The notes beneath the pieces are model-generated. The model saw nothing but the letters and a program-made list of their open reading frames with translations. It was not told where the DNA came from and did no database searches. A program made the position numbers and the translations under genes. From Candidatus Omnitrophota bacterium (GTDB lineage Bacteria > Omnitrophota > Gorgyraeia > B26-G9), in contig JAHITY010000124.1 in NCBI GenBank assembly GCA_018817165.1, forward strand, positions 97,973 through 161,972: a stretch of 64,000 nt of DNA. The letters run 5' to 3'. Within the stretch, counting starts at the first letter, position 1; each line of letters starts with the position of its first letter. Of this stretch, positions 10,089 to 25,706 are shown piece by piece.

Positions 10089-10108
10089 CTTTATGGAGTA
10101 TAAATAAT

Positions 10109-11353
10109 TTGAAGATAGCAATAATCGGCGCGGGAATAAGCGGTTTAGTAAATGCCTATAGATTTTCTACCAAGCATCAAGTTACGGTCTATGAACAAAC
10201 CAAGCAGATTGGAGGATTATGCTCAGGTTTTGAATCGGATGGTAAATATATTGATAAATATAATCATTTCTTTTCCAAGTTTGATAAAGAATTAATCGAA
10301 CTTCTTGCTGAGCTGGGGATAAGTAAAAAAGTTTCTTGGAAAAAATCAGGGCAATGTTTATTCATTAATGATCAGCTTCAGGACTTAAGTAATCCGTTTA
10401 ATCTGTTTTCAATCAAGAATCTTGGTTTGCTTGATAAAATTAAAACAGGAAAATTCTTGGTGGAAAATCTTTTTTCCAGAATGAATATGGAGTTAAATGA
10501 CAAAAATGCTGAAGAATGGATTATTGATCAATGTGGTATTGCCGCGTTTAATCTCTTATTTAAGCCATTACTTAATTTTAAAACTCAGCAAACAGAAGAT
10601 ATTAGCGCCATGTATTTAAAGGCGCGGCTTAAAGAAAGAAAAAATAATATAATTGGAATCCTTGATGGAGGGATGCATACGCTGTTGATTGCCTTAAGAG
10701 ACAGACTGCATAAAAATAAAACTCATATTTGGTTAAATTCAAAAGTTAAAAAAATAATGCGAGATGATAAAAATAAGTGGCAGGTTGTTTTAGATACCGG
10801 ATCTGAGGAGTATGATCTGGTTATTGCCTGTATCTCATTGGCTGATGCGTCAGCTTTATTTGGGGGTAATCCGGGGTTTCCTGTGCCAGAGTACCTTAGT
10901 GTCGGATCTTGGGTATTGGATTTAAATAAGCCGCTTAATCAAAAATGCTGGATTTGTTTGGTTGATGATCAACAGGGAAAAAGGCATGTGGTAGTTAATA
11001 CTCAGCCGCTGGACAAGGACAATCGGGCATATTTTACTTTTTATCTGCGCAATCAATCTCTAAATCAGCAAATTGAGCAGGAGATGTTTAATGCTTGCTG
11101 TGATGCCCTAAAAAAGATAAATCCAGAATTTAATCAGCAATGGATCACTCAAAAGACTTTTCACTCAGATGTCAATGTTGAGCCGGTATTTACCCAGAGA
11201 TTTGTCGCTAAACTTTATGGAGCTGTGGAATCATTTAATGGATTGTATCTTCCTGATTTAGTGTACATGCCGCAGCTTTTAAAAACGATTAATACATCAA
11301 TTGTAAAAAGTTTAATAATAAAACAGAGAATTAGAAAAGAATTTAAAATTTAA
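10109..11353 (+). CDS. FAD-dependent oxidoreductase (amine oxidase / protoporphyrinogen oxidase-like fold)
   Basis: N-terminal dinucleotide-binding IAIIGAGISGLVNAY ... YEQTKQIGG. Confidence 0.6.
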   Translation: MKIAIIGAGISGLVNAYRFSTKHQVTVYEQTKQIGGLCSGFESDGKYIDKYNHFFSKFDKELIELLAELGISKKVSWKKSGQCLFINDQLQDLSNPFNLFSIKNLGLLDKIKTGKFLVENLFSRMNMELNDKNAEEWIIDQCGIAAFNLLFKPLLNFKTQQTEDISAMYLKARLKERKNNIIGILDGGMHTLLIALRDRLHKNKTHIWLNSKVKKIMRDDKNKWQVVLDTGSEEYDLVIACISLADASALFGGNPGFPVPEYLSVGSWVLDLNKPLNQKCWICLVDDQQGKRHVVVNTQPLDKDNRAYFTFYLRNQSLNQQIEQEMFNACCDALKKINPEFNQQWITQKTFHSDVNVEPVFTQRFVAKLYGAVESFNGLYLPDLVYMPQLLKTINTSIVKSLIIKQRIRKEFKI

Positions 11354-11365
11354 TCAGGGAAAATT

Positions 11366-12292
11366 ATGTATGCCACAATACAGGTTGATTTAGATAGTTT
11401 ATGGACTTATGATCGATACCTGTACCAAAAAATAAATAATTATCCGGTTGATCCTGTATATTCGCAAAGTCTTCAATCTTTCCTCGATCTTTTTGCCAAA
11501 TATAAATTAAAAGCCACTTTTTTCATTATTGGCAAAGATGTTCAAAATCCCAAACAAAGCAAATATATTAAAATGATAATTGAACAGGGGCATGAAATTG
11601 CCAATCACAGCATGAATCATCTGTCTGATTTCGCTGCTCTAAGCTTGGAGCAAATAAGAGAGGAAATTATCTTAGCGCATAATCTAATAAAATCAGTGAT
11701 TAATAAGGATCCAGTTGGTTTCCGCGCTCCGATGTTTTCGATTAATCAACCGGTAATCCGAGTGCTTGAGGATCTGGGGTATAAGTATGATGCATCCCTG
11801 ATGCCTTCAGCGATTTTCCCCCTGATGATGAACACGGCACATTCTTTATTAAAGTTAAAACCAGTTAATCTTAAATGCGGAAATATCCGCTGGGGTGATG
11901 CGCCTCGCGGAATTTATCATCCGGATAAGCAAAATATGGCAAAACCCGGGGCAATGGAAATTAAAGAGGTACCGGTCAGCGTAAGTAATTTTGCGCGTTT
12001 TCCGATGCACAGCACATATGTTTTTGTTTTTGGGAAATTTTTATTTGATTCTGGTTTTAACTATGCTTTAAAAAATAAAATAACTTTGCATTATCTTTTT
12101 CATGGGATTGATCTATTGAATATTGAACAATATTCGCTCAAATTACCTGGCTTTAAGACTTTGACTAAAAGGCAGAAAATCTGTGAGCAGATAGTTAAAA
12201 AACTTGCTGAAAATTCGCAGGTTGTCACAACCGAGAATCTGATTGCAATTGGAAAGGAAACCCATGGTATACATCCTGCTTCCGGCATTTAA
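11366..12292 (+). CDS. polysaccharide deacetylase (NodB homology; ArnD-like)
   Basis: ATFFIIGKDV ... HEIANHSMNH match NodB motifs 1 and 2. Confidence 0.75.
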   Translation: MYATIQVDLDSLWTYDRYLYQKINNYPVDPVYSQSLQSFLDLFAKYKLKATFFIIGKDVQNPKQSKYIKMIIEQGHEIANHSMNHLSDFAALSLEQIREEIILAHNLIKSVINKDPVGFRAPMFSINQPVIRVLEDLGYKYDASLMPSAIFPLMMNTAHSLLKLKPVNLKCGNIRWGDAPRGIYHPDKQNMAKPGAMEIKEVPVSVSNFARFPMHSTYVFVFGKFLFDSGFNYALKNKITLHYLFHGIDLLNIEQYSLKLPGFKTLTKRQKICEQIVKKLAENSQVVTTENLIAIGKETHGIHPASGI

Positions 12293-12998
12293 TGAAGCGA
12301 AAAATCTAGAACAGATGTTTACGAATATATCTTTGGTATTAAAGCAGGCAAAACAGCAGTTTTGCATATTTGTAGTTAATGACGGCAGTACTGATAATAC
12401 CGCAAAAATTGTCTTAGAAAAAAACGCGGAATTTCCTTTAGAATTAATTTCTTTTGCCCAAAATCAAGGGGTAGGCCAAGTGTTTCGTCAGGGGATCAAA
12501 ACTATTTGTGCCAAAGCTCAGGCTGCTGACATATTGATATCAATGGATTGCGATCAGACGCATCCAGCTAATGTTTTACCTTTGATGATTGAAAATATAA
12601 GTTCCGGATACGAGCTTGTGATTGCCTCGAGATATCATAAGCAAAGCACTACAGTTAATCTTCCTTGGATCAGGCTGATCATGAGTGACGCGATAAACGG
12701 GTTTTTAAAAGCTTGTTTTGGAATAAAAGGGGCCAGAGATTATTCGACTTTTTTCCGGGCGTATAAAATAGGGTTACTGCAAAAAGCAGAGAAATTTTAT
12801 CAAACTGATTTTATTGAACAAAAGGGTTTTGCCTGTATGGCGGAAATTTTGATAAAACTGCGCAGATTTAATCCGCAAATAAAGGAAGTCCCGCTTAATC
12901 TGCGCTTTGATCTGCGTACGGGCAAAAGTAAGATGAAGGTGTTTAATACTATTTTGGGATATTTGAAGTTAATTGTAAAAGAAAAATTTAGGAAGTGA
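12264..12998 (+). CDS. family 2 glycosyltransferase, polyprenol-phosphate sugar synthase-like (DPM1/ArnC-like)
   Basis: ILLPAFNEAKNL ... VNDGSTDNT ... MDCDQTHP (DxD region). Confidence 0.75.
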   Translation: MVYILLPAFNEAKNLEQMFTNISLVLKQAKQQFCIFVVNDGSTDNTAKIVLEKNAEFPLELISFAQNQGVGQVFRQGIKTICAKAQAADILISMDCDQTHPANVLPLMIENISSGYELVIASRYHKQSTTVNLPWIRLIMSDAINGFLKACFGIKGARDYSTFFRAYKIGLLQKAEKFYQTDFIEQKGFACMAEILIKLRRFNPQIKEVPLNLRFDLRTGKSKMKVFNTILGYLKLIVKEKFRK

Positions 12999-13121
12999 AA
13001 AATATTTACAATGGCGGATTAATAGTCAATAGCTCATGCTAATGGCCAATAGTAAAAATCTCCTGATCCGGGCAGGTAAGTTGGAATATTGTATATCTAA
13101 AATACTTTTAAGGGTAAAAAA

Positions 13122-13634
13122 ATGCTGAAAAATTCAGAGGCAATTCCGCTTTCGATCTTTGTTGTTTATACGAGATTCATTGATTCTCCAATTATCGAAA
13201 ATTGGAAATATCCATTCCTTGTCAGCGGGCTTGCGGCGCTTATTGTCATTATTTCAGTTTTACGCAGAAAAATAATATTTGATCGTATTCTTTTAGGTGT
13301 TAATCTTTATTTAATTAGCGGGGCTTTGGCCTTTATCACGCACAAATGGTGGTTATACAATCTTTACTACCAACTTCAGGCCTCAGGAATGATTGTCTGG
13401 ATTATAGCTACAGGGATTGTAACTGTTTCTTTGAACTCAAAAGGTTTTATTGGTGTTGACTCATCGGATATAAATTCTATTAAAAAATATTCCGGCTATT
13501 TGCTATTGATTTGTGTATTTGCGTTTGCTTTTTCGTTCTGGCTGCGTACCAACATCTTACTTTCAGGATTCCTGCCATTTACTTGCTTATTTTTAGTCCA
13601 AAAATCATTTAAGGATACTTGTCTTAGGAAATAA
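13122..13634 (+). CDS. small integral membrane protein
   Basis: 170 aa with 4-5 hydrophobic helices; no recognisable motif. Confidence 0.4.
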   Translation: MLKNSEAIPLSIFVVYTRFIDSPIIENWKYPFLVSGLAALIVIISVLRRKIIFDRILLGVNLYLISGALAFITHKWWLYNLYYQLQASGMIVWIIATGIVTVSLNSKGFIGVDSSDINSIKKYSGYLLLICVFAFAFSFWLRTNILLSGFLPFTCLFLVQKSFKDTCLRK

Positions 13635-13656
13635 CCTTTTACGCCTTAGAGAATTA

Positions 13657-13691
13657 ATTGTTTTTTCCTTAAGAACGCGGTAATGCGTCTA
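13657..13691. repeat. 35-bp direct repeat (left copy) bounding an ORF-free insert
   Basis: ttaagaacgcggtaatgcgtctactcgataacacg; a split right copy lies at 14271-14392 (ttaagaacgacgcaatac ... taatgcgtt ... aactcgataacac). Confidence 0.45.
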
Positions 13692-14145
13692 CTCGATAAC
13701 ACGTAACCGTACTAGCGCACAAACTAGGTAAATCATATCGTAACTAATAATTCATAACTATACACTTCAAGATGATAGGCAATTTTTACATTATATACTC
13801 AGAGTACTCTTTTCTCTTCATTTCTTTGCTGCAGGTCAAAGAAACGAAGCAAAGAAACCCCGCCCCCAGATGAAACAGTGATGATTTTCTAATGATTTAG
13901 TAACTCCGACTTCACCCCGCATTTGCGGGGTTCGCCGCCAAATCGCTCCTCCTGGCTCAGTGGCGTTCCGCCGTCCTGGCTCCATCTCCGTTCCTAAACC
14001 AAAGAAAATAGATCACTTGGTTTCAAGGGGGGAATCTAAACCTAGCTATTAGATTAATTCATGTGAAAGATGATGGGAAAATTTTTAAGCTTCTCACAAA
14101 TTTAGGTAAATACGTGTCGGATTTTTGGGGACCCTTTAAATGAGA

Positions 14146-14262
14146 GCCTGACTTACGGAGTGTTAGCGAAGTCAAGTCAGCCTGCTCGCTTGTCCCGCCG
14201 TTCTCTGGCGGGGAATTTAGCACGAGAAGCAGCGATTAGCTGCTGATCGTGAATCCTTATTA
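14146..14262 (+). repeat. ~115-bp hairpin-rich dispersed element (X element), copy 1
   Basis: ~90% identical to the reverse complement of 28968-29086; internal hairpins cctgacttacgg/ggctgacttga and aagcagcgattagctgctt. Confidence 0.7.
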
Positions 14263-14270
14263 TTTAAGAA

Positions 14271-14392
14271 CGACGCAATACTAAAGAGTTGCAATCTTTT
14301 GTCAGCGTAAAATTTGCCTGCCATCTTTTAAAAGTAATGCGTTGGCGAGTTGATTGTTTTTTTTATGAACTCGTTAACTCGATAACACTCAA
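14271..14392. repeat. right copy of the 35-bp direct repeat, split by ~85 bp of extra sequence
   Basis: See 13657-13691. Confidence 0.4.
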
Positions 14393-14411
14393 ACGTGTCA
14401 ACCCTGTTAAA

Positions 14412-15827
14412 CTATTTTCTTTTTTCGAAAAGTAAATACTTGAGCATGTAGAATGAGAGTTTGCATAATTGGGGGAGTTGTTTAGGATTGAGCATTTTTT
14501 TGCAGAAAAAACCGATAAAATGCCAGCTGAATAAATAACGGGTATAGATCTGTTTTTGAAAGGTGACTAATTGTTGGGCAGTTAAATGTTTTGTGCCCCA
14601 GGGCGGGACAGAGTGCATGAAATTAAACTTATTCCAATCAATGTCTTTGATCAAACCATATTCCTGCATAATATTATAAATTTCTGTGCCGGGATAGGGA
14701 CAGATAATTCCCAGCTGAAATACATCAGGTTTGATTTCTTTGATTATCTGCTCAGTCAGGGCAATATCTTCAGCAGTTTCTTCAGGATGAGAGCCGAGAA
14801 TAAAAAAAGCGCAGGCAACTATTCCTGCCTTATGCGTTAGCTTGAAAGCTTGCTTGATTTGTTCTATAGTTATGTTTTTCTTCATTAGTTTTAGGATCTT
14901 AGGACTGCCGGATTCAACTCCGTAAGCAATTTTTAAACAACCACAATCCTTCATCAGAGAAATTAGCTGTTTATTGACCATGCTGACTTTAGTCTGACAA
15001 TCCCAAGTTAATTTCAACTCTTTTAATCCAAAACAAATTTGTTTGAATCGATCAGGATTTAAAGTTAGATTAGTGTCTTCAAAGGTAATATGATTATAGC
15101 CCATGTCTTTGCATTGCTTTAATTCAGCAATAACATTTTCTGCGCTGCGGAATCTTGCTTTTGGACCGCTGGTTTTTTTAACAGCGCAGAATGTGCAGTC
15201 CTGAGAACATCCTCGAGAAGTAAATAAAACAGTGGGTTTTTTGCCGGCAGTATCAATGCCGGCAGCATACATATTTTTATATAAATTATGATTCAGTAGG
15301 CTGCGGTCAGGAAAAGGCAGGCTGTCTAAATCTTCAATGTCCTCAGTGGGTTGATTTATCACTGCTTGTTCGTCCTTTATAAAAGCAATGCCGCTGATAC
15401 TGTCAATCGGTTGTTTGTCTCTAAGATTTTGGCAGAGTTTGAGCAAAGCGATTTCACCTTCGCGCAAAACCAGATAATCAAAACAAGGGAATTCCTCTAA
15501 GCTCTGCTTTGGCACTGCGGAAACATGCGCGCCACCGGCAATTGTAATTATATTATTATTGATTTTCTTTGTGGCTTTGGCAAGATCATGCGCATTATTA
15601 ATAGTAGGCGTCATGCTGGTAATGCCGATAATCGAGATATTGGCTTCCTTGATTTTTCGGGCTAAAATATCCGGTGAAAAATGTTCGACCTCAAAATCCC
15701 AAATAATTGTTTTGAATTTATTTGCATTTAAAAAAGCAGCTAAATAGGCGAGGTTTATCGGTTCCTGAATTAGGATTTTTTCAAAAGCTCCAGTTATTTT
15801 TGGCGGACGAATAAGGGCAATATTCAT
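14412..15827 (-). CDS. B12-binding domain radical SAM protein
   Basis: SRGCSQDCTFC rSAM cluster; N-terminal B12-binding-like fold; SD aaggaaag before the ATG. Confidence 0.8.
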   Translation of the reverse strand: MNIALIRPPKITGAFEKILIQEPINLAYLAAFLNANKFKTIIWDFEVEHFSPDILARKIKEANISIIGITSMTPTINNAHDLAKATKKINNNIITIAGGAHVSAVPKQSLEEFPCFDYLVLREGEIALLKLCQNLRDKQPIDSISGIAFIKDEQAVINQPTEDIEDLDSLPFPDRSLLNHNLYKNMYAAGIDTAGKKPTVLFTSRGCSQDCTFCAVKKTSGPKARFRSAENVIAELKQCKDMGYNHITFEDTNLTLNPDRFKQICFGLKELKLTWDCQTKVSMVNKQLISLMKDCGCLKIAYGVESGSPKILKLMKKNITIEQIKQAFKLTHKAGIVACAFFILGSHPEETAEDIALTEQIIKEIKPDVFQLGIICPYPGTEIYNIMQEYGLIKDIDWNKFNFMHSVPPWGTKHLTAQQLVTFQKQIYTRYLFSWHFIGFFCKKMLNPKQLPQLCKLSFYMLKYLLFEKRK

Positions 15828-15875
15828 GTCTTTCCTTAATTACCGATAGTAAATTTAGTCATTGTAACTAATTAA

Positions 15876-15911
15876 ATATTATGATAGACTCTAATATTAT
15901 GATAGGCTCTA
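15876..15911. promoter_or_regulatory. tandem 18-bp direct repeat (ATATTATGATAGACTCTA x2) in the divergent promoter region
   Basis: Two adjacent near-identical 18-mers between the divergently transcribed rSAM genes 14412-15827(-) and 16054-17553(+); candidate regulator binding site. Confidence 0.3.
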
Positions 15912-16053
15912 TAAGTATTTTGTACTTATGTTACTCTTAATATTTTCATAAGTCAACAGTGGGGTTAGAAAGCATGGAGGCTAACATTGATTTTATGCGG
16001 AACAATTGATAAAACAATCTAACTTTATAGAATAAATCTAACCAGGATAAATT

Positions 16054-17553
16054 TTGAAAATATTACTGTTAAATCCTATTGATATTCATATTGCTTGGCC
16101 CGTTAAAAATGACTTTGCTAAATATCTTTTTTGTAATCCAGGTATTACCTTTCCCCTCATAGCAAGATTAATTCCCAAACATCATACTGTTTTCTTTTTT
16201 GATGGGTTTTACCACCAAATCAGTCTCAAAGAGTACAAAGATTTGATAAAACAATATGATATTATTATGCTGACAATTGTCGATTCCTTAGTTGCCTTGA
16301 ACTATGAAATAAGCATTAAATTAATAAAAAAACTTTTTCCTGAAAAAGTTATCATTGCCGGAGGAATACATGCGAATATTTATGCAAAAGATTGGCTGGG
16401 AAAAGGAGTTGACATTATTGTCAAAGGCGAAGCGGAAAACAGTTTACCCCAACTTATAGAAGCTATTGAATATAAAGCTTCTTTGCAGGGAATTAATGGG
16501 TTGATATATTTGGAAAATGGCGGGATCAAAGAAACCGCAACGCAAAGTTTATTGGATGATCTCGACGCAAGTCCGATTCCTAATTGGGACATTATTGATT
16601 TTAAATTATATAATTTAATGCTAAGAAAAAAAGGATATACCGCGGCTTTAGAAACATCGCGCGGCTGTATTAATGGATGTAATTTTTGTTTGGTGAATTC
16701 ATTTTGGAAAAAAACCCAGAGGTATAAATCAATACCGCGTGTTTTGGAAGAATTAAAAATTTTAAAGCGTTATGATGTATCACAATTTGCGATGCTTGAT
16801 GATGGATTTGCTAATGATATTGATCGCGACAGCCGGCTTTTGGAAGCAATGTTAAGTAAGGGGCTTGATTTTGCTTGGGCGTCTTTCTTAAGAATCGATA
16901 CAATTATTGATCATCCGGAATTTGTTGAACTAGCGGCAAAAAGCGGTTTAAAACGGGTAGTTGTAGGTTTTGAACATACTAATGCCGCGGTTCTTAAACT
17001 GATCAATAAAGGATTAAAAGATGGTGGTTGTGATGAAGAGTATATCAAAGCAATGGATGTATTAAAGAAAAATAATATATTTACGGTTGGTCTTTTTATC
17101 GCGGGATATCCCGGTCTTAAAAAAGATGAAAAGCTTAAATACAGCAAAGCCAGAAGATATTGTACTGATGCGCGGGCCGGAAATTACAAAGCCCTGCCTA
17201 GTACTTTTGGCTATAATAATGTTTCGAAGAATTTTGACGTTGAAAATATGTTTTATCATGATGCTCGATTGACTTCTTCCGCTCAATCTTCCAAGGAACA
17301 TTTTATCTTTAATGTCTTGGCTACCTTAGACCCTGTAAAATATACTATTTTATTTGATCGCCGCTATCATTACAGAGAGTATTTTTATAAAAGCCTTTTG
17401 CTTCTTTTTAGACAGATGTTTGATCTTAATTTGTCTAAAATTAAGGAATTTATAGTCTTAAAAATCTTAAATTTGCCACTTAAGGATAAAAAACAGTATT
17501 TGGTCAAAAACTATTTATCAGAGGATTTTATTAATCGGTTAATTTTAAAATAA
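16054..17553 (+). CDS. B12-binding domain radical SAM protein (TTG start)
   Basis: TSRGCINGCNFC cluster; paralog of neighbouring genes. Confidence 0.75.
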   Translation: MKILLLNPIDIHIAWPVKNDFAKYLFCNPGITFPLIARLIPKHHTVFFFDGFYHQISLKEYKDLIKQYDIIMLTIVDSLVALNYEISIKLIKKLFPEKVIIAGGIHANIYAKDWLGKGVDIIVKGEAENSLPQLIEAIEYKASLQGINGLIYLENGGIKETATQSLLDDLDASPIPNWDIIDFKLYNLMLRKKGYTAALETSRGCINGCNFCLVNSFWKKTQRYKSIPRVLEELKILKRYDVSQFAMLDDGFANDIDRDSRLLEAMLSKGLDFAWASFLRIDTIIDHPEFVELAAKSGLKRVVVGFEHTNAAVLKLINKGLKDGGCDEEYIKAMDVLKKNNIFTVGLFIAGYPGLKKDEKLKYSKARRYCTDARAGNYKALPSTFGYNNVSKNFDVENMFYHDARLTSSAQSSKEHFIFNVLATLDPVKYTILFDRRYHYREYFYKSLLLLFRQMFDLNLSKIKEFIVLKILNLPLKDKKQYLVKNYLSEDFINRLILK

Positions 17554-17560
17554 ATTTATT

Positions 17561-18916
17561 ATGAGCAATAAACCAAATGTAATTTTGATCTATCCTAAAA
17601 TTGGAGGGCCATTTATCAATCTTCGCAAAAAAAGACCAATGCCGCTGGGATTATTAAATGCATCGGTTTATTTAGTTGATGATTATGAGGTTAAAATATT
17701 TGACCAATCATTACATTCTAACTGGAAACAAGCACTTAGAAATTTAATCAATTCAAATACCTTAATTGTCGGTATTCACGCCATGGCGGGATATCAGCTG
17801 CTACATGCTCAAGATGTGTCTAAATTTATAAAATCCATTTGTAGCACCCCAATAATCTGGGGAGGGGTGCATCCTACTTTAATCCCGGAAACAGTTCTTA
17901 AAGAACCTTTTATTGATTATGTTTGTGTCGGAGAAGGTGAGCGGACATTTCCCGAATTGGTAAAAGCAATCCAGCTTAAGCAGGATATCAGTTCGGTTAA
18001 AGGAATTTATTATCGAAATAACAGCAAGAATATCTTTACCGGGGATCGGGAGTTTGTTGATTTGAATCAACTTCCTGAATTGCCGTATCATTTACTTAAC
18101 CTTTCTGATTACAATGTCAGCGGGGGGGCGAGGTTTGATGAAAAGGAATTAAAACTATCTATGGAAACCTCCCGGGGTTGTGCTAATGATTGTATTTTTT
18201 GTTACAATCCCGTATTTAATAAGCGACATTGGCGAGCCCAAGATGCCGATAGAGTTATCGAACGTATCGAATTTTTAGTAAAAAATTATCATGTGACCCA
18301 TATTGATTTTATTGATGATGCCTTTTTTACTGATTTGGGTCGTGTGGAAAAAATCGCTAAATCATTGATTGCTAAAAAAATCAATATTAAGTGGTTTTTA
18401 CAAGGAGTGGATATTCAAAAACTTATGCAGGCCGATGATGCTTATTTGGATCTTTTAGATAAAGCCGGCTGCCGCGTTATGCGTATGGGGGCAGAATCAG
18501 GCTCCGCGAGACTCCTTGAGCAGATGCAGAAAAAAAGCACGATTGATCAAGTAATTAAGATCAATAAGCGATTGCGCGATACAAATATTGTTTGTTATTA
18601 CTATTTTACAATTGGCATGCCTCAAGAGACAGAAGCGGATCTAAAAAAGACTGTGGATCTAATGCTGACACTATTAGCGGATAATCCTCAAGCTAGAATA
18701 TTGTCGGCATTTTGTCTGACCCCTCAGCCAGGCACTAGATTGCTTGAAGAGGCTCAAAAGCAGGATTTTTCCTTGCCTAAAACCGTCAGTGATTGGGCAA
18801 AGATTGATGGAACAACGATTATTACGCCTTGGTTTGATAAAAAAATGAAAAAAAAAATTAAATTTCCTTTTTTTTATAAGCTTGTTTATAGATCGGAAAA
18901 ATCAGGATATAATTGA
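17561..18916 (+). CDS. B12-binding domain radical SAM protein
   Basis: TSRGCANDCIFC cluster. Confidence 0.8.
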   Translation: MSNKPNVILIYPKIGGPFINLRKKRPMPLGLLNASVYLVDDYEVKIFDQSLHSNWKQALRNLINSNTLIVGIHAMAGYQLLHAQDVSKFIKSICSTPIIWGGVHPTLIPETVLKEPFIDYVCVGEGERTFPELVKAIQLKQDISSVKGIYYRNNSKNIFTGDREFVDLNQLPELPYHLLNLSDYNVSGGARFDEKELKLSMETSRGCANDCIFCYNPVFNKRHWRAQDADRVIERIEFLVKNYHVTHIDFIDDAFFTDLGRVEKIAKSLIAKKINIKWFLQGVDIQKLMQADDAYLDLLDKAGCRVMRMGAESGSARLLEQMQKKSTIDQVIKINKRLRDTNIVCYYYFTIGMPQETEADLKKTVDLMLTLLADNPQARILSAFCLTPQPGTRLLEEAQKQDFSLPKTVSDWAKIDGTTIITPWFDKKMKKKIKFPFFYKLVYRSEKSGYN

Positions 18917-19121
18917 TTCAACTTTTATTCGGTTTTTATGTGCTGTTTATCGTCCGATTGCTTTATTTCGGATTAAGCGCCTTAATTTTAAGTTTCCTAT
19001 AGAATATGCGATGTTTAATTTGCTCAAAAAAATATATTAAGAACAAATTTTGTTATTAAACATTCTAGTTGATAGAATAAATCTTAACCTTAAAAATTAT
19101 AATAAAATCAAGGAAGAGTAT

Positions 19122-20618
19122 ATGCAATTTAGCAAAAAAATAAAGAAAGTCATGTTGATTTTTCCTACAGGAAAAGTCTTGAAATGGCGTTTTCATCATT
19201 GCGAAATTCCTATGGGTCTGGCATATTTAGCAGCTGTTTTAAGAGATGATTTTGAAGTTAAAGTTCTTGATGGCCGGGCAAAATTTCAAAGGATAGTCCC
19301 GAAAAACAGTAAATGGGAGTATTTTGGATATAAGCCAGAGGAGATTGCCGCGCAGGTTAAAGCGTATGCTCCGGATGTAGTGGGAATCAGCTGTCTTTCT
19401 TCATTTCATTTTTCCGATGTTGCGGATTTATTTGAACGTATTAAGCAAGTAGATAAAGATATTATTACTGTAACCGGAGGAACTCATCCGACCTTTTTAG
19501 CTGATGAAGTTATGAAAAAACACACCAGTATTGATTTTATTGTTATGGGTGAAGGTGAACAGACTTTTCGGCAGCTGCTTCTTAATATAAATTCTGAAAA
19601 AGACTATAGCCGAATGGATGGGCTGGCTTTTCGGAGTAAGGGAACTTATCAAATTAATCCCAAGACAGAGTACATTAAAAATCTTGACGAATTGCCTTAT
19701 CCGGCATTTGATTTATTCCCCCTAGATTTTTATGAAAAAAAAAGCATTCCCTTTAGTGTTACCTCTCGCAGTAAGAAAACGATTCCAATTTTAACCAGCC
19801 GCGGCTGCGCGTCAAACTGTATATTCTGCGCGTCTAAAAATTATTGGGGTAACCGTTACCGCATGCGTTCCGCGGAAAATGTATTAGATGAAATAGAATA
19901 TGTGGTCAAAAATTACGGCGCTCGAGAAATTCAGTTTATTGATGATAATCTTACCTTAGATAAAAATAGGGCCTGTAAAATTTTTCAAGGTTTAATTGAC
20001 CGCAAGCTTGATATTCATTGGAATACGCCCAATGGTGTCGCGGTATGGACATTAGATGAAAAGATGCTTAAATTAATGAAGGCAAGCGGCTGTTATGAAT
20101 TAACTGTTGCTTTTGAAAGCGGAGCGCAGGAAGTCTTGACCGATATTATTAAAAAGCCATTGGATTTAGAATACGCGAGAAAAATGGTTAATAAGATGAA
20201 AGAACTGGGTATACAGGTGCATTCATTTTTTATTTCCGGATTTCCCGGAGAAACAAAAGAGCAAATAAAAAGAAGTTTTGCTTTTGCAAAGACCATGGAT
20301 TTAGACAGCGCTTGGTTTTTTGTCGCGAATCCGACACCCGGTTCTGAATTATATGATATTTGCAAAAAAGAAGGATATATTAATGATGATTTCTCATTTG
20401 AAAATATTGAGTATACTCTTTCGCACATAAAAAATAAGGAGTTTACTCCTAAGGAAATGGAAAAACTCGTAATAAAACAGTTTAGTGATTATAATTTAGG
20501 TCAGATGGTAAAACATCCTATTCGTTTTTTAAAAAAATATCTTGGGCTGATAATTTCCCACCCGATAATGTCTTTAAGGACTGTCTTGGCGGATATTTTA
20601 TTTTATGTAGGTAAATGA
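19122..20618 (+). CDS. B12-binding domain radical SAM protein
   Basis: TSRGCASNCIFC; SD aggaag before the ATG at 19122; close paralog of the next gene. Confidence 0.8.
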   Translation: MQFSKKIKKVMLIFPTGKVLKWRFHHCEIPMGLAYLAAVLRDDFEVKVLDGRAKFQRIVPKNSKWEYFGYKPEEIAAQVKAYAPDVVGISCLSSFHFSDVADLFERIKQVDKDIITVTGGTHPTFLADEVMKKHTSIDFIVMGEGEQTFRQLLLNINSEKDYSRMDGLAFRSKGTYQINPKTEYIKNLDELPYPAFDLFPLDFYEKKSIPFSVTSRSKKTIPILTSRGCASNCIFCASKNYWGNRYRMRSAENVLDEIEYVVKNYGAREIQFIDDNLTLDKNRACKIFQGLIDRKLDIHWNTPNGVAVWTLDEKMLKLMKASGCYELTVAFESGAQEVLTDIIKKPLDLEYARKMVNKMKELGIQVHSFFISGFPGETKEQIKRSFAFAKTMDLDSAWFFVANPTPGSELYDICKKEGYINDDFSFENIEYTLSHIKNKEFTPKEMEKLVIKQFSDYNLGQMVKHPIRFLKKYLGLIISHPIMSLRTVLADILFYVGK

Positions 20619-22138
20619 AAAATATTAAAAAAAATATTAAAAAAGTTTTACTTATTTTTCCTCCGGTTGTCTGTTCGCAGGAAAGTCCTAAACAGATCAT
20701 GCCGCCATTGGGGATCAGTTATCTGGGGGCTTATTTAGAAGGTGATTATGAGGTTAAGCTTCTTGATGCCGCTTTAGAAGGTTATGAGCATGAGCAAATA
20801 ATAAGTCCAGGGTTTTTTCAATATGGACTTTCTGCGGAGCAGATAAAACAAAAAATTACTGAATTTTCTCCGGATGTTGTGGGCGTATCATGTTTATATT
20901 CCAGCCAGTTTTCCGCAGTATCCAAAATTTGTGATATAGCCAAAGAAATATCTCCGCTAATAATTACTTTGATCGGAGGCACACATCCGACTTTTCTCCC
21001 TAAAGAGTGTTTGGGATTTGAATCTATTGATTTTATTTGTTTGGGAGAAGGGGAATTGCCGACAAAAGCGCTGCTTGATAGTTTTAAAAATGGAAATTCT
21101 TATGAACATATAGATGGAATTGCTTTTCGTACAGACAAAGATATTGTAATCAATCCCCAAAAAAGAATAATTGAAAATATTGATGCTTTGCCTCATCCGG
21201 CAAGGCATCTGTTGTCTTTAGATAAATATTTTAAAATTGGTTTGCCAATGGGGCTGATCAGCCGTAAGACTCCGGCGATTAATATTATAACTTCGCGGGG
21301 CTGTCCGTTTGAGTGCTCGTTTTGTTCTTCATGCCATTTTTGGAGTAGACGCTATCGAGTGCGTTCTGTGGAAAATGTTTTAGGGGAAATGGATGAGCTT
21401 AAAAAAATGGGAGTGCGAGAGTTAAAATTCTTTGATGATAATCTAACATTGGATAAGCCGCGGGCAAAGGCTTTGTTTAAGGCTATGATCAAACGCGAAT
21501 ACAATTTTAGCTGGAATACCCCCAATGGGATTGCCGCGCAAACTCTTGATGAAGAATTGCTGTATTTAATGAAAGCTAGCGGGTGTTATGAGGTGACTTT
21601 AGCCATAGAAAGCGGAGATGAACAGATATTAAAAGAAGTTCTAAAAAAACCAATTGATTTAGAATATACTATAAAAATGGCTAAGCTGATTAAGAAATTG
21701 GGCATGGATACATACGGTTTTTTTATTATTGGGTTTCCTCAGGAGACTAAAAAACAAATATATAAAACTCTAAAATTTATGGATAAAATTAAACTGGATA
21801 GAATTTCCTTGTTTATCGCAAATCCGTTGCCCGGCACAGAAATATACGATGTTTGTAAAAAACAAAATTATCTGTGCGCTCAGATTACGGGTAAAGCATT
21901 AGATTATTTTAGTTCGAGTTTTGAAACACCTGAGTTTGATTCAAAGTTTCTAGAAAAAATCAGAAGAGATTGGTATTGGGCATATAATTTAAAGCTTTTA
22001 TTAAGAAATCCTTTTAAATTTTTCCGAAATTATAGTATATTTATATTCAAAAGACCGTTATTTTTATTCCAAGTTTTAATAAAAAAACTAATTATTCCGA
22101 GCCTAATATATGGAAAACGCAAAACTTCAAAAAAATAA
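20615..22138 (+). CDS. B12-binding domain radical SAM protein
   Basis: TSRGCPFECSFC; ATGA overlap with the upstream paralog; shares HPTFL, WNTPNG and MKASGCYE blocks with 19122-20618. Confidence 0.8.
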   Translation: MKNIKKNIKKVLLIFPPVVCSQESPKQIMPPLGISYLGAYLEGDYEVKLLDAALEGYEHEQIISPGFFQYGLSAEQIKQKITEFSPDVVGVSCLYSSQFSAVSKICDIAKEISPLIITLIGGTHPTFLPKECLGFESIDFICLGEGELPTKALLDSFKNGNSYEHIDGIAFRTDKDIVINPQKRIIENIDALPHPARHLLSLDKYFKIGLPMGLISRKTPAINIITSRGCPFECSFCSSCHFWSRRYRVRSVENVLGEMDELKKMGVRELKFFDDNLTLDKPRAKALFKAMIKREYNFSWNTPNGIAAQTLDEELLYLMKASGCYEVTLAIESGDEQILKEVLKKPIDLEYTIKMAKLIKKLGMDTYGFFIIGFPQETKKQIYKTLKFMDKIKLDRISLFIANPLPGTEIYDVCKKQNYLCAQITGKALDYFSSSFETPEFDSKFLEKIRRDWYWAYNLKLLLRNPFKFFRNYSIFIFKRPLFLFQVLIKKLIIPSLIYGKRKTSKK

Positions 22139-24176
22139 ATCTAGATACATCGATCTGATTATTTGCTTAGGCATATTCTTTTTCGCGTTTTTTCTGCGCT
22201 TGATCTATCTTTATGAGTATAGAAATAATCCTTTTTTTGACAGCCCGGTAATTGATGCTTTGACTAATTATTTGTTTGCTATGCGTGCCGCTGAGGGGGA
22301 TTGGCTTGTAAAGGGAGTAGTTGTTGGTCGTGGGCCGGTGTATGTGTATTTTCTGGCTGGTTTATTTAAAATTTTTGGAGCGGGTTTTACCACGGTTCGC
22401 GTATGGCAGATGGCTTTAGGCGCGGTTAATTGTATTTTAGTGTATTTTTTAGGGAAAAAGATATTTTCTCGCTCGGTTGGGGTAATCAGTGCTTTTATCT
22501 GCAGTATGTATGGGGTGCTGATCTATTTTGACGCGGAATTTTTGTACGTGGGGCTGGCAATATTTATAAATATCCTGTTGATCTTATCTTTATTGAATTC
22601 AATCGATAGACCCAAGGTTTGGAAATGGATCGGCTGCGGGATCCTTCTGGGAGCGTCTCTTCAAACAAACGCGACTATAATATTATTCTTTCCTCTGCTC
22701 TTTATATGGTTATTTTTATCCGCGGATAAGAAAAAGCAGGATGAGCAAATAAATAACAAAAAGATCAGATTTAGAAAAGCTATGGGACCATTTTTATTAA
22801 TTGCTACTGGAGTAAGTCTGGTTATGCTTCCATTTACTTTGCGTAACTATTTTATGGGTGGAGATCTGGTAATGATCGGTTCAGCGGTGGGGATTAATTT
22901 GCATATTGGCAATAATCTGAATGCTGATGGTAAAAGTGTGAATGTCCCGACAAGGGATTTCTCTTATTCAAATCAGTGGGACGATAATACGCTGATTGCT
23001 GCTAAAAAAGGCGCGGAAAGGGAAATGGGAAGAGAAATATTGCCTTCTGAGGCTTCTAATTACTGGATACGCAAATCTCTGGGTTTTATGTTAACTAATC
23101 CTGTAACTGCTTTGTCTCTTTTTATAAGAAAATTTTATTATTTTTTTAATGCTTATGAGATTGCGGAAAATCAGAGTATTTATTTTTATCGTCTTTGGTC
23201 ACCGCTGTTAAAAATACTGGTCTTTCATAATAGGGTACTGGCTTTTCCTTTTGGAATAATTTGCCCATTAGCTTTATGGGGAATTGCTGTTTCTGCGAAA
23301 AAAAATAAGGCAGTGATGCTGCTGCTTATTTATCTGGCGGCATTTTTAATGCTTATGATGATTTTCTTTGTTTGTAGCCGTTACCGGACGATTGCTGTTC
23401 CGGTTTTCGTGATTTTTGCGGCAGTTGCTTTGGATTGGTACGCTAAACAGATAAGAGAGCGTAAATTTAAAGTTTTATTTTTATCGTTGATACCGCTGTT
23501 TTTCCTTTATCTATTTAGTAATTCGATTGTTTTTGATATTCGCCAAGAAGATCAATCGCGGTGGTTTTTAAATCTGGGCACTGCTTATCGAAATAAAGGG
23601 GAAAATGAAAAAGCAATTAAATCCTTTAAGGCGGCAGAAAAAGTAAACCCGCGTAATCCTGACGCGGTATACAATCTCGGAGTCATATATTTGGAAAAAG
23701 AAGAATATCAAGACGCAATTGAGGAATTTAGAAAATCGATTAAAATAGATGAGTATGATTCTGCGGCTTATTCCAATGTGGGCATAGTCTTGATGAAGCA
23801 AAAAAAAATTGATGAAGCTATTGCCAGTTTTCAATCAGCACTGACCTTAGACCCGGCTGATGTAACAGCAATGGCAAATCTAGGAGCTGCTTTAATTACA
23901 AAAGGCGATTATCCCGCGGCGCTACTCGTACTTAAGCAAGGACTGGAAAGGGATGAGAATTTTCCGCCACTGCATTTGCATTTGGGCATATTGTTTGAAG
24001 AAACGGGAAAGTATGCGGAGGCAGAACAAGCATATATAAGTGCGATAAAAAAAGACCCGGAATATATTCAAGCTTATTGGGGTTTGGCTAAACTTTATGA
24101 TATAATTGGACTCCCGGATAAGGCAAAGTGGGCAAGGACCAAAGCAATGTATATGGTTTCTGATAAGCTTAAATAA
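22110..24176 (+). CDS. GT-C family membrane glycosyltransferase (PMT/ArnT-like) with C-terminal TPR repeats
   Basis: N-terminal multi-helix region with FFDSPV-type loop typical of the PMT_2/ArnT family; C-terminal repeats of AxxxYxxAxxxxP TPR units. Confidence 0.65.
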   Translation: MENAKLQKNKSRYIDLIICLGIFFFAFFLRLIYLYEYRNNPFFDSPVIDALTNYLFAMRAAEGDWLVKGVVVGRGPVYVYFLAGLFKIFGAGFTTVRVWQMALGAVNCILVYFLGKKIFSRSVGVISAFICSMYGVLIYFDAEFLYVGLAIFINILLILSLLNSIDRPKVWKWIGCGILLGASLQTNATIILFFPLLFIWLFLSADKKKQDEQINNKKIRFRKAMGPFLLIATGVSLVMLPFTLRNYFMGGDLVMIGSAVGINLHIGNNLNADGKSVNVPTRDFSYSNQWDDNTLIAAKKGAEREMGREILPSEASNYWIRKSLGFMLTNPVTALSLFIRKFYYFFNAYEIAENQSIYFYRLWSPLLKILVFHNRVLAFPFGIICPLALWGIAVSAKKNKAVMLLLIYLAAFLMLMMIFFVCSRYRTIAVPVFVIFAAVALDWYAKQIRERKFKVLFLSLIPLFFLYLFSNSIVFDIRQEDQSRWFLNLGTAYRNKGENEKAIKSFKAAEKVNPRNPDAVYNLGVIYLEKEEYQDAIEEFRKSIKIDEYDSAAYSNVGIVLMKQKKIDEAIASFQSALTLDPADVTAMANLGAALITKGDYPAALLVLKQGLERDENFPPLHLHLGILFEETGKYAEAEQAYISAIKKDPEYIQAYWGLAKLYDIIGLPDKAKWARTKAMYMVSDKLK

Positions 24177-24179
24177 AAT

Positions 24180-25706
24180 CTAAAACTTCTTTTTTATTTT
24201 TTTCCCCAAAGCTTTTGAGAGTATCCATCCGGACATAATCGCGGTAGTTATGCCGGTTCCCGGAATAGTCCAATGACCAGATAAATGTAGATTTTTAATC
24301 GGGGTTGTTTGTTTTAAACGGTAGATTAAGCTTTGTTCCGGAGAATTGGCCCAACCATACATTGCTCCACGATGACTCAAAGAGAAATCATTTAAATCTT
24401 GGGGCGTAAATATCTTTTTAATCACAATATGATCAGACAAGTTTTTGACTTTTTTTTCTACCAGTTGAATCATTTCATGGGCAATTTGCTCTTTTGCGCT
24501 GCGCCAATCACGTTCTGTTTGCCAGGGGTAGAAAAGGGTTAAAATTAATGTGCTGTGACCTTTTGGCGCTAAATTCGGTTCAAGGTGGGTCGGACTATAG
24601 GCACTTAAGCAGGGAACTAGACCTTTTTCGAATTTTTCATAACATTCTTCAAAATCAAAAGATTCGTAGAAAAAATATTCGTGTTGGGCAAACCCATGTT
24701 TAGCAATATCAAAATCAAGACCTATAAATACTTTAAAAGGTCCTACAGATGGAGTTAGTTTGGATAGTTTTCGCATATAATTTTTAGGCAGAATATCCGG
24801 ATCAATCAGTTTTGTAAAAGTTTGTATTGCATCCGCATTAGAAATAACTGTTTTAGCAAATATCTTTTGGCCGTTTTCTAAGACGACTCCTTGCGCGATA
24901 TTGTTTTTAACGATAATTTCTTTAACCCCAGAGTTGAGCATAACCTTGCCTTGATTTTCCTCTATGGCGCTGACAAAGACATCAGCAATTTTTTGTGAAT
25001 TACCTTGAGGATAATAGGTGTGTTCGCCATATAGGCCGCTCATGCATGATACCATCCATAATCCAGAAGCTTTTTTCGGAGGCAATCCCAGATAAGGCCA
25101 ACATGCCGCGAATAAAGCGGCGATGTTTTTATTTTTAGTCAGTATTTTGAAAAGTTTATCGGTAGTTTTGCGAGAATTTAAAAACCAAAACAAGCCGGTA
25201 AACGGGAAGGTTAGTTTTTTTAATAATTTAATTTTTCCATAATTACTGTTTTCAACTGATTTTTTACCTTGGAAAATCCGCCCGGTAATTAGTATGTCTT
25301 GCCGCCAGGCAATCATTGTCTTAAAAAATCGGCGGATGTCTTTCTTATGGTCAGGAGCCAGGTCAATCATAGCTTTTTCAAGCCCTTCATAACTTCCGGG
25401 CAGAGAAATTTCGCGATCAGGTAGGATTAAAGTAACAAAAGGGTCAATTCTGAAAAATTTAAGTTTATCCTTAATTTTATAATCTTCAAAAACTTGCGCG
25501 CAGTTGCCATTATCATCAACTCCGGTTAATTGATGTACTGCTACGTCAAATGTATAATCTCCGATAGGAAAGGAAGAGCAATTGCCTCCGGCAACTGAGT
25601 TGCGTTCGCAAACAACTACCTTTTGCCCAGCTCTGGCTAATCCTAAAGCCGCGGATAAACCGCCCATGCCACTGCCAATAACTATCACATCTACATTATT
25701 TTGCAT
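24180..25706 (-). CDS. phytoene desaturase-family FAD-dependent oxidoreductase (CrtI-like)
   Basis: DVIVIGSGMGGLSAALGLARAGQKVVVCE dinucleotide-binding motif; ~500-aa CrtI-like length. Confidence 0.7.
   Translation of the reverse strand: MQNNVDVIVIGSGMGGLSAALGLARAGQKVVVCERNSVAGGNCSSFPIGDYTFDVAVHQLTGVDDNGNCAQVFEDYKIKDKLKFFRIDPFVTLILPDREISLPGSYEGLEKAMIDLAPDHKKDIRRFFKTMIAWRQDILITGRIFQGKKSVENSNYGKIKLLKKLTFPFTGLFWFLNSRKTTDKLFKILTKNKNIAALFAACWPYLGLPPKKASGLWMVSCMSGLYGEHTYYPQGNSQKIADVFVSAIEENQGKVMLNSGVKEIIVKNNIAQGVVLENGQKIFAKTVISNADAIQTFTKLIDPDILPKNYMRKLSKLTPSVGPFKVFIGLDFDIAKHGFAQHEYFFYESFDFEECYEKFEKGLVPCLSAYSPTHLEPNLAPKGHSTLILTLFYPWQTERDWRSAKEQIAHEMIQLVEKKVKNLSDHIVIKKIFTPQDLNDFSLSHRGAMYGWANSPEQSLIYRLKQTTPIKNLHLSGHWTIPGTGITTAIMSGWILSKALGKKIKKKF

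Follow-up and report, generated by a model that had tools for sequence, protein, structure and literature searches.

A putative Arn-like carrier-lipid amino-sugar pathway interwoven with B12-type radical-SAM genes in an Omnitrophota genome

Systems composed of a family 2 glycosyltransferase (GT2), a flippase and a membrane glycosyltransferase of the GT-C class, which work through a carrier lipid, decorate lipid A, O-antigens, teichoic acids and arabinogalactan and underlie polymyxin resistance. GT2s of the DPM1 class make polyprenyl-phosphate-linked monosaccharides, GT-C enzymes use donors linked to polyprenyl phosphate or diphosphate, and deacylases such as ArnD, NaxD and LgmC de-acylate the polyprenyl-phosphate-linked intermediates before transfer. 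In the Arn pathway of Enterobacteria (ArnB, ArnC, ArnA, ArnD, ArnT and ArnE/F), which places 4-amino-4-deoxy-L-arabinose on lipid A, a GT2 attaches the N-acylated amino sugar to undecaprenyl phosphate, a NodB-fold enzyme strips off the acyl group on the cytoplasmic side and a GT-C completes the transfer in the periplasm. Here we describe a gene cluster with the same three-step logic in a 64,000-nucleotide stretch of a Candidatus Omnitrophota bacterium (contig JAHITY010000124.1, positions 97,973 to 161,972), called the window below. Its NodB-family deacetylase, GT2 and GT-C genes are split around an array of B12-type radical S-adenosylmethionine (rSAM) genes.

Several other systems are close in logic. 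Francisella (NaxD) and Bordetella (LgmA/B/C) attach galactosamine or glucosamine to lipid A, and the deacetylase of these pathways belongs to the YdjC family and not to NodB. In both, an N-acetylhexosamine is loaded from its uridine diphosphate derivative (UDP-HexNAc) onto undecaprenyl phosphate, deacetylated on the lipid and transferred by an ArnT-like GT-C; the Francisella proteins FlmF2 and FlmK have been described (PMC2233673). Dedicated sugar-nucleotide synthesis genes are not needed there, as in the Omnitrophota cluster, but the acceptor is lipid A and there are neither rSAM enzymes nor a tetratricopeptide repeat (TPR) domain. In Streptococcus pyogenes, the GacI/GacJ/GacL system uses a GT2 and a small membrane protein to make N-acetylglucosamine (GlcNAc)-phosphate-undecaprenol, the sugar of which is then transferred by a GT-C on the outer side of the membrane (bioRxiv 10.1101/180810). 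It includes no deacetylase, rSAM enzyme or flavoprotein and its acceptor is a Gram-positive wall polysaccharide. The only described radical-SAM action on a lipid-bound sugar is that of the HpnI/HpnK/HpnJ pathway, in which HpnJ is the proposed ring-contracting enzyme on lipid-bound glucosamine, and of the calditol synthase Cds (PMC13459092). As proposed here, the radical-SAM step of the Hpn pathway follows glycosyltransferase and deacetylase steps; in contrast, the lipid is a hopanoid or, for Cds, a glycerol dialkyl glycerol tetraether (GDGT) and not polyprenyl phosphate, and no GT-C is involved. Finally, the eukaryotic TMTC1-4 and PMT protein O-mannosyltransferases possess a GT-C domain which uses a polyprenyl-phosphate-monosaccharide and which, in the TMTCs, is fused to a non-cytoplasmic TPR domain.

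We consider it likely, with a probability of about 0.68, that the Omnitrophota cluster encodes an Arn-like carrier-lipid amino-sugar pathway with built-in rSAM enzymes and flavoproteins. The cluster is a twelve-gene stretch at 8706-25706, flanked on both sides by housekeeping genes, and its open reading frames (ORFs), gene overlaps, domains and rSAM array taken together exclude a chance arrangement. Its genes, with positions in the window, are:

8706-10088, forward strand: rSAM1, a B12-binding radical-SAM enzyme which heads the sub-operon rSAM1-FAD1-NodB-GT2
10109-11353, forward strand: FAD1, a flavin amine-oxidase/PPOX-like oxidoreductase
11366-12292, forward strand: NodB/CE4 deacetylase, 308 aa, cytoplasmic, PF01522
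12264-12998, forward strand: GT2, 244 aa, PF00535, from an ATG at 12264 (the mechanical ORF begins at a TTG at 12243)
13122-13634, forward strand: orf170, a small membrane protein of 170 aa with about 4-5 hydrophobic segments
14412-15827, reverse strand: rSAM2, a B12-binding radical-SAM enzyme, divergent from the right half of the cluster
16054-17553, forward strand: rSAM3, a B12-binding radical-SAM enzyme found only in the "long" form of the right-half cassette
17561-18916, forward strand: rSAM4, a B12-binding radical-SAM enzyme of the long cassette, with a frameshifted tail to about 19031
19122-20618, forward strand: rSAM5, a B12-binding radical-SAM enzyme, class-B methyltransferase-like (the mechanical ORF begins at a TTG at 19050)
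20615-22138, forward strand: rSAM6, a paralogue of rSAM5 (42% identity)
22110-24176, forward strand: GT-C, 688 aa, a PMT_2 membrane domain with C-terminal TPRs
24180-25706, reverse strand: a CrtI-family flavoprotein, phytoene-desaturase/isomerase-like, which travels with the long right-half cassette

The left sub-operon is compact: 21 bp separate rSAM1 from FAD1 and 13 bp separate FAD1 from NodB, which overlaps GT2 by 29 bp. On the right, rSAM5 overlaps rSAM6 by 4 bp and rSAM6 overlaps GT-C by 29 bp. An earlier reading of the DNA from its letters and ORFs (the preliminary description) had given the positions of NodB, GT2 and GT-C and the 29-bp overlap of NodB with GT2 correctly, as well as the coupling of a 688-aa, TPR-bearing GT-C to the last rSAM gene. 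Its picture of a triad split around an rSAM array is also borne out, as six B12-type radical-SAM genes, each with a CxxxCxxC motif, lie around and between the three genes. The three Pfam families it had named for the triad, PF01522, PF00535 and PF13231, all score above their gathering thresholds. For NodB and for GT-C identical proteins are on record, that of NodB on a 178-kb contig of a metagenome-assembled genome and that of GT-C among its database homologues.

NodB carries PF01522 (80.4 bits, E 1.4e-22, gathering cut-off 23.1). Across 26 aligned homologues D8, D10, H81, H85, P122, D142 and H246 never vary and at least 90% of the sequences have R120, and both the domain score and the catalytic and metal-binding Asp/His motifs, which are intact, place the protein in CE4. 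It has no transmembrane (TM) segment or signal peptide, and none of the 26 homologues has a signal peptide. In NodB such a peptide is excluded because the first catalytic motif, "VDLD", starts at residue 7, as it does in all 26 family members; the secreted enzyme that the preliminary description had set against its own proposal is therefore not what is found. One could nevertheless see in NodB an ordinary secreted peptidoglycan or exopolysaccharide deacetylase and in GT2 an ordinary polysaccharide glycosyltransferase, the three genes being unrelated neighbours. The best solved relatives of NodB are indeed peptidoglycan, chitin and xylan deacetylases (on the family profile the peptidoglycan deacetylase 3qbu scores 85 bits, ArnD 8t0j 23 bits, E 2.4e-4), and many of its more distant relatives, for example in Myxococcales, have no partner genes nearby. 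Against this stand the lack of a signal peptide or TM segment, the overlap with GT2 and the recurrence of GT2-NodB-GT-C adjacency in distant lineages, and we regard such a fortuitous neighbourhood as very improbable. A profile comparison of the NodB family with E. coli ArnD (hhalign) gives a probability of 96% over only 111 columns of the CE4 core. In its cytoplasmic location, its coupling to GT2 and its recurrent adjacency to GT2 and GT-C genes, NodB resembles ArnD, of which it would be a functional analogue and not an orthologue; its predicted function is the cytoplasmic de-N-acylation of a lipid-linked sugar.

GT2 matches PF00535 (70.4 bits, E 2.2e-19). The preliminary description had assigned it a DPM1/ArnC-type N-terminus and a DxD region, and alignment confirms these motifs: "LPAFNE" and "MDCDQTHP" correspond to "IPTYNE" and "MDADLQHP" of the Pyrococcus furiosus dolichyl-phosphate mannose synthase DPMS and, for the second, with "LDADLQNP" of ArnC. 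All six of its best sequence relatives in the PDB are polyprenyl-phosphate glycosyltransferases. The first is P. furiosus DPMS (5mlz, 77 bits, in an alignment that spans residues 2-237 and with them the entire catalytic domain), followed by three ArnC sequences (44-52 bits) and two sequences of the GtrB-like sll0501 (40 bits). By these relatives GT2 is not a processive, cellulose-synthase-like enzyme, which would have spoken against a polyprenyl-phosphate function. Among NCBIfam models, ArnC ranks first and the processive synthase PgaC/IcaA second, and ranks three to six go to PgfS, a haloarchaeal dolichyl-phosphate hexose transferase, PpgS and AglJ; every one of these models is matched far under its equivalog cut-off. 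Compared directly with E. coli ArnC the protein is 24% identical over 169 residues (E 6e-20). Motifs and similarity both place it in the polyprenyl-phosphate glycosyltransferase class (DPM1/DPMS, ArnC, GtrB, PpgS), and it is predicted to be a polyprenyl-phosphate HexNAc synthase. Human DPM1 and PpgS are members of this class without TM helices, and it is with these, not with ArnC proper, that GT2 belongs, because no hydrophobic segment occurs in its 244 aa.

The membrane part of GT-C matches PF13231 PMT_2 at residues 75-205 (45.6 bits, E 1.1e-11, cut-off 26.1) and is followed by about six TPRs at residues 480-680; no MIR domain was found with Pfam, and a search of the PDB gave no sequence match to the membrane domain even at E<=1. 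An AlphaFold model of residues 1-475, built with 38 homologues, has a predicted local distance difference test score of 87.7 and a predicted template-modelling score of 0.90. Searched with Foldseek, the full-length model retrieves only TPR proteins and the membrane part alone is informative: its 27 best PDB matches are all GT-C enzymes (STT3/AglB/PglB, Pmt4, ArnT, ALG3/9/12 and Pmt1-Pmt2). ArnT (E 1.3e-3, template-modelling score 0.33-0.40) comes behind STT3/AglB/PglB (E 2e-6 to 4e-4) and Pmt4 (E 4e-4, template-modelling score about 0.49). The preliminary description had suggested modelling to tell ArnT-like from PMT-like catalytic loops; the model confirms the fold but does not place the protein specifically with either. 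Residue D49, present in at least 90% of the 38 homologues, opens the first external helix (48-61) after TM1 and lies about 15 residues before a "GDW" which aligns with the same motif after "PDETRY" of ArnT; it is the candidate catalytic Asp. With this fold, and with D49 as a conserved acid in its first external loop, the protein is a member of the GT-C class. By the positive-inside rule, two K/R-rich loops (395-401 and 446-454) predict a periplasmic TPR domain, and the protein is predicted to transfer a lipid-carried sugar to an acceptor outside the inner membrane. The fusion of GT-C and TPRs is shared with the eukaryotic TMTCs and suggests a protein acceptor, but there is no sequence relation to TMTC or PMT proteins beyond the PMT_2 domain, and the donor here is probably an amino sugar. 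The architecture alone does not define the system, because more distant GT-C/TPR paralogues (29-33% identity) do not adjoin NodB or rSAM genes.

The strongest argument for the triad as a unit of function comes from distant lineages. We examined the surroundings of NodB relatives with 27-38% identity and identified their partners with a hidden Markov model of the GT-C membrane domain and by BLAST with the window proteins. In Planctomycetota, archaeal metagenome-assembled genomes (MAGs) and other bacteria, such NodB relatives have a short GT2 and a GT-C of the PMT_2 family as neighbours, in shuffled gene orders. The simplest case (L037) is an isolated three-gene operon, GT2 (250 aa)-NodB-PMT_2, bounded by genes on the opposite strand. 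A Phycisphaeraceae locus (L039) has the four-gene operon NodB-GT2 (246 aa)-amine-oxidase flavoprotein-PMT_2, whose flavoprotein is homologous to FAD1; another FAD1 homologue lies near NodB in L038. In L030 (Planctomycetia) the order is B12-rSAM-GT2-NodB-SPASM rSAM-PMT_2, followed by more rSAM genes and a DegT aminotransferase, and a paralogous system of another Omnitrophota member (L036) reads DegT-GT2-B12 rSAM-NodB-Formyl_trans_N-two methyltransferases-carbamoyltransferase-PMT_2. An archaeal MAG (L019, 8163-16656) has GT-C-NodB-two FemAB-like genes-DegT-two half-size EamA genes (123 and 110 aa), with a short GT2 further on. This amounts to a nearly full Arn-like gene set, the EamA pair resembling ArnE/ArnF, and the two FemAB-like genes point to the attachment of an amino acid to the amino sugar. 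Layouts like that of L019, which was itself scanned with Pfam, occur in L023, L031 and L034 as judged by ORF size.

Overall, 14 of 68 distant loci have both a GT2 and a GT-C within 10 kb of NodB. B12-type rSAM genes are present in 9 of these 14 compared with 10 of the 54 others (Fisher p = 0.0016, in a test that ignores relatedness among loci), and in L026, L030, L036 and L040 they are immediate neighbours of GT2 and NodB or stand between the two, in differing orders. We conclude that the triad is a real module and that its NodB family is met again in distant lineages, with the flavoprotein and B12-type rSAM genes as recurrent additions. Because of its recurrent GT2 and GT-C partners, we read this family as the enzyme that removes the N-acyl group in the Arn-like carrier-lipid pathways of several phyla. 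Comparative genomics thus favours the Arn-like view of the preliminary description, and neither of the two findings that it had named as fatal, a processive GT2 or a secreted NodB, was made. Loci related by the NodB family carry DegT (ArnB-like), Formyl_trans_N (resembling the N-terminal domain of ArnA) and paired half-size EamA (ArnE/F-like) genes. The three proteins are not orthologues of ArnC, ArnD and ArnT.

The Omnitrophota cluster itself lacks not only orthologues of these three proteins but also ArnA, ArnB and ArnE/F. ArnC has two C-terminal TM helices where GT2 has none, ArnT has no TPR domain, and four to six B12-type rSAM enzymes with one or two flavoproteins occur in clusters of the present kind and none in Arn. 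Judged by sequence, the cluster is an analogue of the Arn system and not a member of it. In functional type it goes with Arn, Flm-NaxD, Lgm, PpgS-Rv3779 and GacI-L, and its family memberships are GT2 (polyprenyl-phosphate class), CE4 and PMT_2/GT-C. It departs from known systems in its TM-less GT2, its non-ArnD NodB, its TMTC-like fusion of GT-C to TPRs, its co-operonic amine-oxidase-type flavoprotein and, above all, its B12-type rSAM enzymes.

All six rSAM proteins carry PF04055 and CxxxCxxC and are members of class B of the radical-SAM enzymes. The B12-binding domain PF02310 scores 51-89 bits in rSAM2, rSAM4, rSAM5 and rSAM6, and 25 and 18 bits in rSAM3 and rSAM1, under the 32.1-bit gathering score; cobalamin dependence is predicted for all six. 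In rSAM1 (PF04055, 67.5 bits) the motif is at residue 205; PF02310 and PF04055 score 78.8 and 89.9 bits in rSAM2 and 89 and 82 bits in rSAM5, whose start at the ATG at 19122 fits the length of its orthologues (498 aa in L088). The named families that are matched all score under their cut-offs. HpnJ (TIGR03471) scores 85-213 bits against the rSAM proteins, with a cut-off of 578: it is the best NCBIfam match of rSAM1 (144 bits) and rSAM2 (198 bits) and the second-best of rSAM5 and rSAM6, these four falling within 144-213 bits. The best match of rSAM4 is TIGR04072 ("lipid biosynthesis", 137 bits, under cut-off). The Sden_1168 P-methyltransferase model NF038361 gives 303 bits for rSAM5 and 328 bits for rSAM6 (cut-off 575), so that neither is a member, but class-B methyltransferases of this type are the enzymes which the two appear to resemble most. 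In the PDB, rSAM6 comes closest to 9ccb and to the aminoglycoside sugar diol-dehydratase AprD4 (6fd2), both with 75 bits, and the fact that AprD4 acts on an amino sugar counts in favour of the pathway proposed here. Of the flavoproteins, FAD1 has PF01593 (69.8 bits) and reaches 239.7 bits with PRK07233 (cut-off 252), and the CrtI-family protein reaches 172 bits with TIGR02734 (cut-off 238). Compared with its 494-aa L088 orthologue, rSAM4 is frameshifted at an A10 run at about 18848-18858, which leaves its last ~58 residues in another frame and does not touch the radical-SAM core; the cause may be an assembly error in the homopolymer or a real, perhaps phase-variable, truncation.

Two broader assignments of the array were rejected. 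A ribosomally synthesized and post-translationally modified peptide pathway has no candidate precursor, as no conserved small ORF occurs in the intergenic regions and the equivalent gaps in relatives are only about 90-230 bp. A hopanoid or ladderane pathway does not agree with family scores that are all far under cut-off or with the absence of cyclase and fatty-acid genes from the cluster.

A more specific lipid proposal is that the cluster makes a new polar lipid by building a head group in the manner of HpnI/HpnK/HpnJ or calditol synthase: GT2 would put GlcNAc on a membrane-lipid alcohol, NodB would deacetylate it and a B12-type rSAM enzyme would contract the ring to a cyclitol, with no GT-C donor involved. 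The same sequence of glycosyltransferase, deacetylase and radical-SAM enzyme acting on lipid-bound glucosamine has been proposed for bacteriohopanetetrol cyclitol ether (PMC13459092), and the HpnJ rankings just given point the same way. However, every HpnJ score is far under the cut-off, the nearest relatives of GT2 are polyprenyl-phosphate synthases, and HpnB, the only hopanoid-associated glycosyltransferase model matched, gives 26 bits. Moreover, the GT-C depends on a lipid-phosphate-sugar donor, its gene is translationally coupled here and other phyla have it together with NodB and GT2, and no squalene or hopene genes occur among the annotated ORFs of the cluster, its upstream flank and the downstream region to about 36.7 kb. 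A head-group pathway is consequently improbable, although we give it more weight than the unrelated-gene explanation of the triad.

The more serious competitor to a common pathway is a plain three-component amino-sugar decoration triad with the rSAM enzymes and flavoproteins as neighbours that do a separate job, such as membrane lipid or isoprenoid modification (as HpnP/HpnR, GDGT-modifying rSAM enzymes or CrtI-type proteins do), in the same variable envelope locus but with no common substrate. Triads without rSAM genes exist (L037, L039), the best families of the rSAM proteins are of lipid or P-methyltransferase type (HpnJ, TIGR04072 and Sden_1168, all under cut-off), the long cassette is accompanied by a CrtI-family gene, and the number of rSAM genes varies from four to six among relatives. 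These points are opposed by the tight operon structure, with rSAM6 overlapping GT-C and rSAM1 at the head of the FAD1-NodB-GT2 operon, by the B12-type rSAM genes that adjoin GT2 and NodB in four distant loci, by their enrichment where NodB is accompanied by both GT2 and GT-C, and by the absence of isoprenoid and fatty-acid synthesis genes from the cluster. We hold a separate job for the rSAM enzymes to be rather unlikely. Tailoring of the lipid-linked amino sugar is the role that we propose for them.

The Arn-like pathway that we propose comprises four steps. First, the soluble, DPM1-like GT2 would load an N-acylated hexosamine from a nucleotide sugar onto polyprenyl (undecaprenyl) phosphate at the cytoplasmic face of the membrane; the donor is probably a common UDP-HexNAc, because the cluster contains no sugar-nucleotide synthesis genes. 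Second, the cytoplasmic NodB/CE4 enzyme would remove the N-acyl group to leave a lipid-linked amino sugar. Third, FAD1 and the B12-type rSAM enzymes may tailor the sugar, probably while it is on the lipid carrier, with C-methylation, deoxygenation and ring contraction as candidate chemistries. Fourth, after flipping, the sugar would be passed on by GT-C to an acceptor in the envelope; this reaction would take place on the periplasmic side and rely on D49 of the first external loop, while the periplasmic TPR domain would select or hold the acceptor. The first, second and fourth steps, drawn from family membership and recurrent context, are probable. The third, drawn from the context of tight operon structure and recurrence beside GT2 and NodB, is more tentative and falls short of even odds. 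A bolder form of the proposal is possible, though we think it somewhat doubtful: that the four to six rSAM enzymes per genome and the flavoproteins act on the polyprenyl-phosphate-linked amino sugar between the deacetylase and GT-C steps, yielding a heavily tailored product (C-methylated, deoxygenated or ring-contracted to a cyclitol) which is then placed on the Omnitrophota envelope. The half-cassettes described below would then be a surface-variation system that operates by radical chemistry instead of glycosyltransferase swapping.

A number of observations weigh against the proposed pathway. GT2 scores only 58.8 bits with the ArnC equivalog NF007986 (cut-off 529), which excludes it from ArnC, and it has no membrane anchor; ArnD is not among the NCBIfam matches of NodB at E<=0.001; and GT-C does not belong with ArnT (GT83), a BLAST comparison with E. 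coli ArnT giving E 0.2. The functions ascribed to members of the GT2, NodB and GT-C families are themselves predictions. No flippase is conserved in the Omnitrophota cluster, the enrichment of rSAM genes beside complete triads has the statistical limit given above, and the triads of L037 and L039 indicate that rSAM enzymes are not needed for the core mechanism and could serve otherwise. To these must be added that within the Omnitrophota the housekeeping flanks of the cluster (pyk, rpoN, pyrR and pyrB) are syntenic as well, and for this reason we did not count within-phylum synteny as evidence of linkage.

One gene order, rSAM1-FAD1-NodB-GT2-rSAM2(-)-[variable slot]-rSAM5-rSAM6-GT-C, is common to 12 genomes of Omnitrophota and the wider Planctomycetes-Verrucomicrobia-Chlamydiae (PVC) group, and the position of rSAM1 and the presence of rSAM2 are kept in all 12 loci. 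The number of rSAM genes varies from four to six, and the right half takes three forms: a short form (rSAM5-rSAM6-GT-C), the short form with a SPASM rSAM gene, and a long form (rSAM3-rSAM4-rSAM5-rSAM6-GT-C-CrtI). Thus rSAM3 is present in L008, L014 and L088 and absent from L003-5, L009 and L010. The CrtI gene occupies the same place after GT-C in L088 (91% identity) and L089 (78%) and is absent where pyrR directly follows GT-C (L003, L005, L009 and L010). In the related Omnitrophota loci L007 (13173-14216), L012 (5922-7094) and L013 (13251-14333) the variable slot holds a non-B12 radical-SAM gene of about 350 aa in place of rSAM3 and rSAM4; that of L007, the one scanned, is AhbD/NirJ-like.

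Protein identities to the window, determined for L003, L004, L008, L014, L088 and L089, reveal a mosaic. L003 is 87-99% identical in the flanks and 76-86% in the left half but only 45-63% in the right half, where rSAM3, rSAM4 and CrtI are missing. L088, in contrast, is 92-93% identical in pyrR/pyrB and 88-93% from rSAM3 to CrtI, with 66-80% in the left half. One breakpoint seems to fall within the divergent intergenic region 15827-16054 and another between CrtI and pyrR. The locus is thus a mosaic of two half-cassettes which exchange independently between conserved flanks, as in surface-antigen loci, and this exchange would fit an envelope product. In another Omnitrophota genome (L086/L087), a DUF2079-PMT_2-GT2 (242 aa) set at 17021-20809 is accompanied by neither NodB nor rSAM genes, and a separate TPR-fused PMT_2 gene lies among housekeeping genes, so that the phylum has several carrier-lipid glycosylation systems side by side.

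Upstream, the cluster is flanked by pyruvate kinase (pyk), a TolB-like propeller protein and rpoN, and downstream by pyrR-pyrB-pyrC. The rpoN gene, which encodes sigma-54, lies at 7186-8604 on the reverse strand, divergent from rSAM1, and is syntenic in 10 of the 12 related Omnitrophota/PVC loci, as judged in those long enough to show it. The sigma-54 promoter consensus is not enriched and does not occur upstream of either sub-operon, and for this reason the adjacency is probably not regulatory. A scan for sigma-70 promoters and terminators gave no clear operon boundaries. Between GT2 and rSAM2 (12998-14412), this genome alone carries an insert composed of orf170 and about 780 bp (13634-14412) without an ORF of at least 60 aa; no Rfam family was found there or elsewhere in the cluster. 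The same distance is about 100-200 bp in L003 and L088, and in several more distant relatives the two genes overlap. The orf170 protein has no Pfam or NCBIfam match and was not found in L003-L014 and L088. It could conceivably be a membrane partner of GT2, with a role like that of GacJ, or a flippase, and we put this forward with little confidence.

Omnitrophota include many very small, possibly host-dependent cells, and the cluster illustrates how, in an uncultured phylum, a familiar logic can be built from non-orthologous parts. The new element is the set of B12-type rSAM genes, translationally coupled to the triad here and recurring beside it in other phyla. We found no description in the literature of radical-SAM enzymes in Arn-, polyprenyl- or GT39-type systems, and the words polyprenyl and undecaprenyl are absent from a 2026 review of lipid-modifying radical-SAM enzymes (PMC13459092). 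The comparative data define a four-gene core (GT2, NodB, flavoprotein and GT-C) together with natural variants that have from zero to six or more rSAM genes nearby. To judge from the mosaic of cassettes, the product may be a surface structure on which diversifying selection acts. If the proposal is true, radical-SAM tailoring of a glycosyl carrier lipid would be new chemistry and the first known of its kind.

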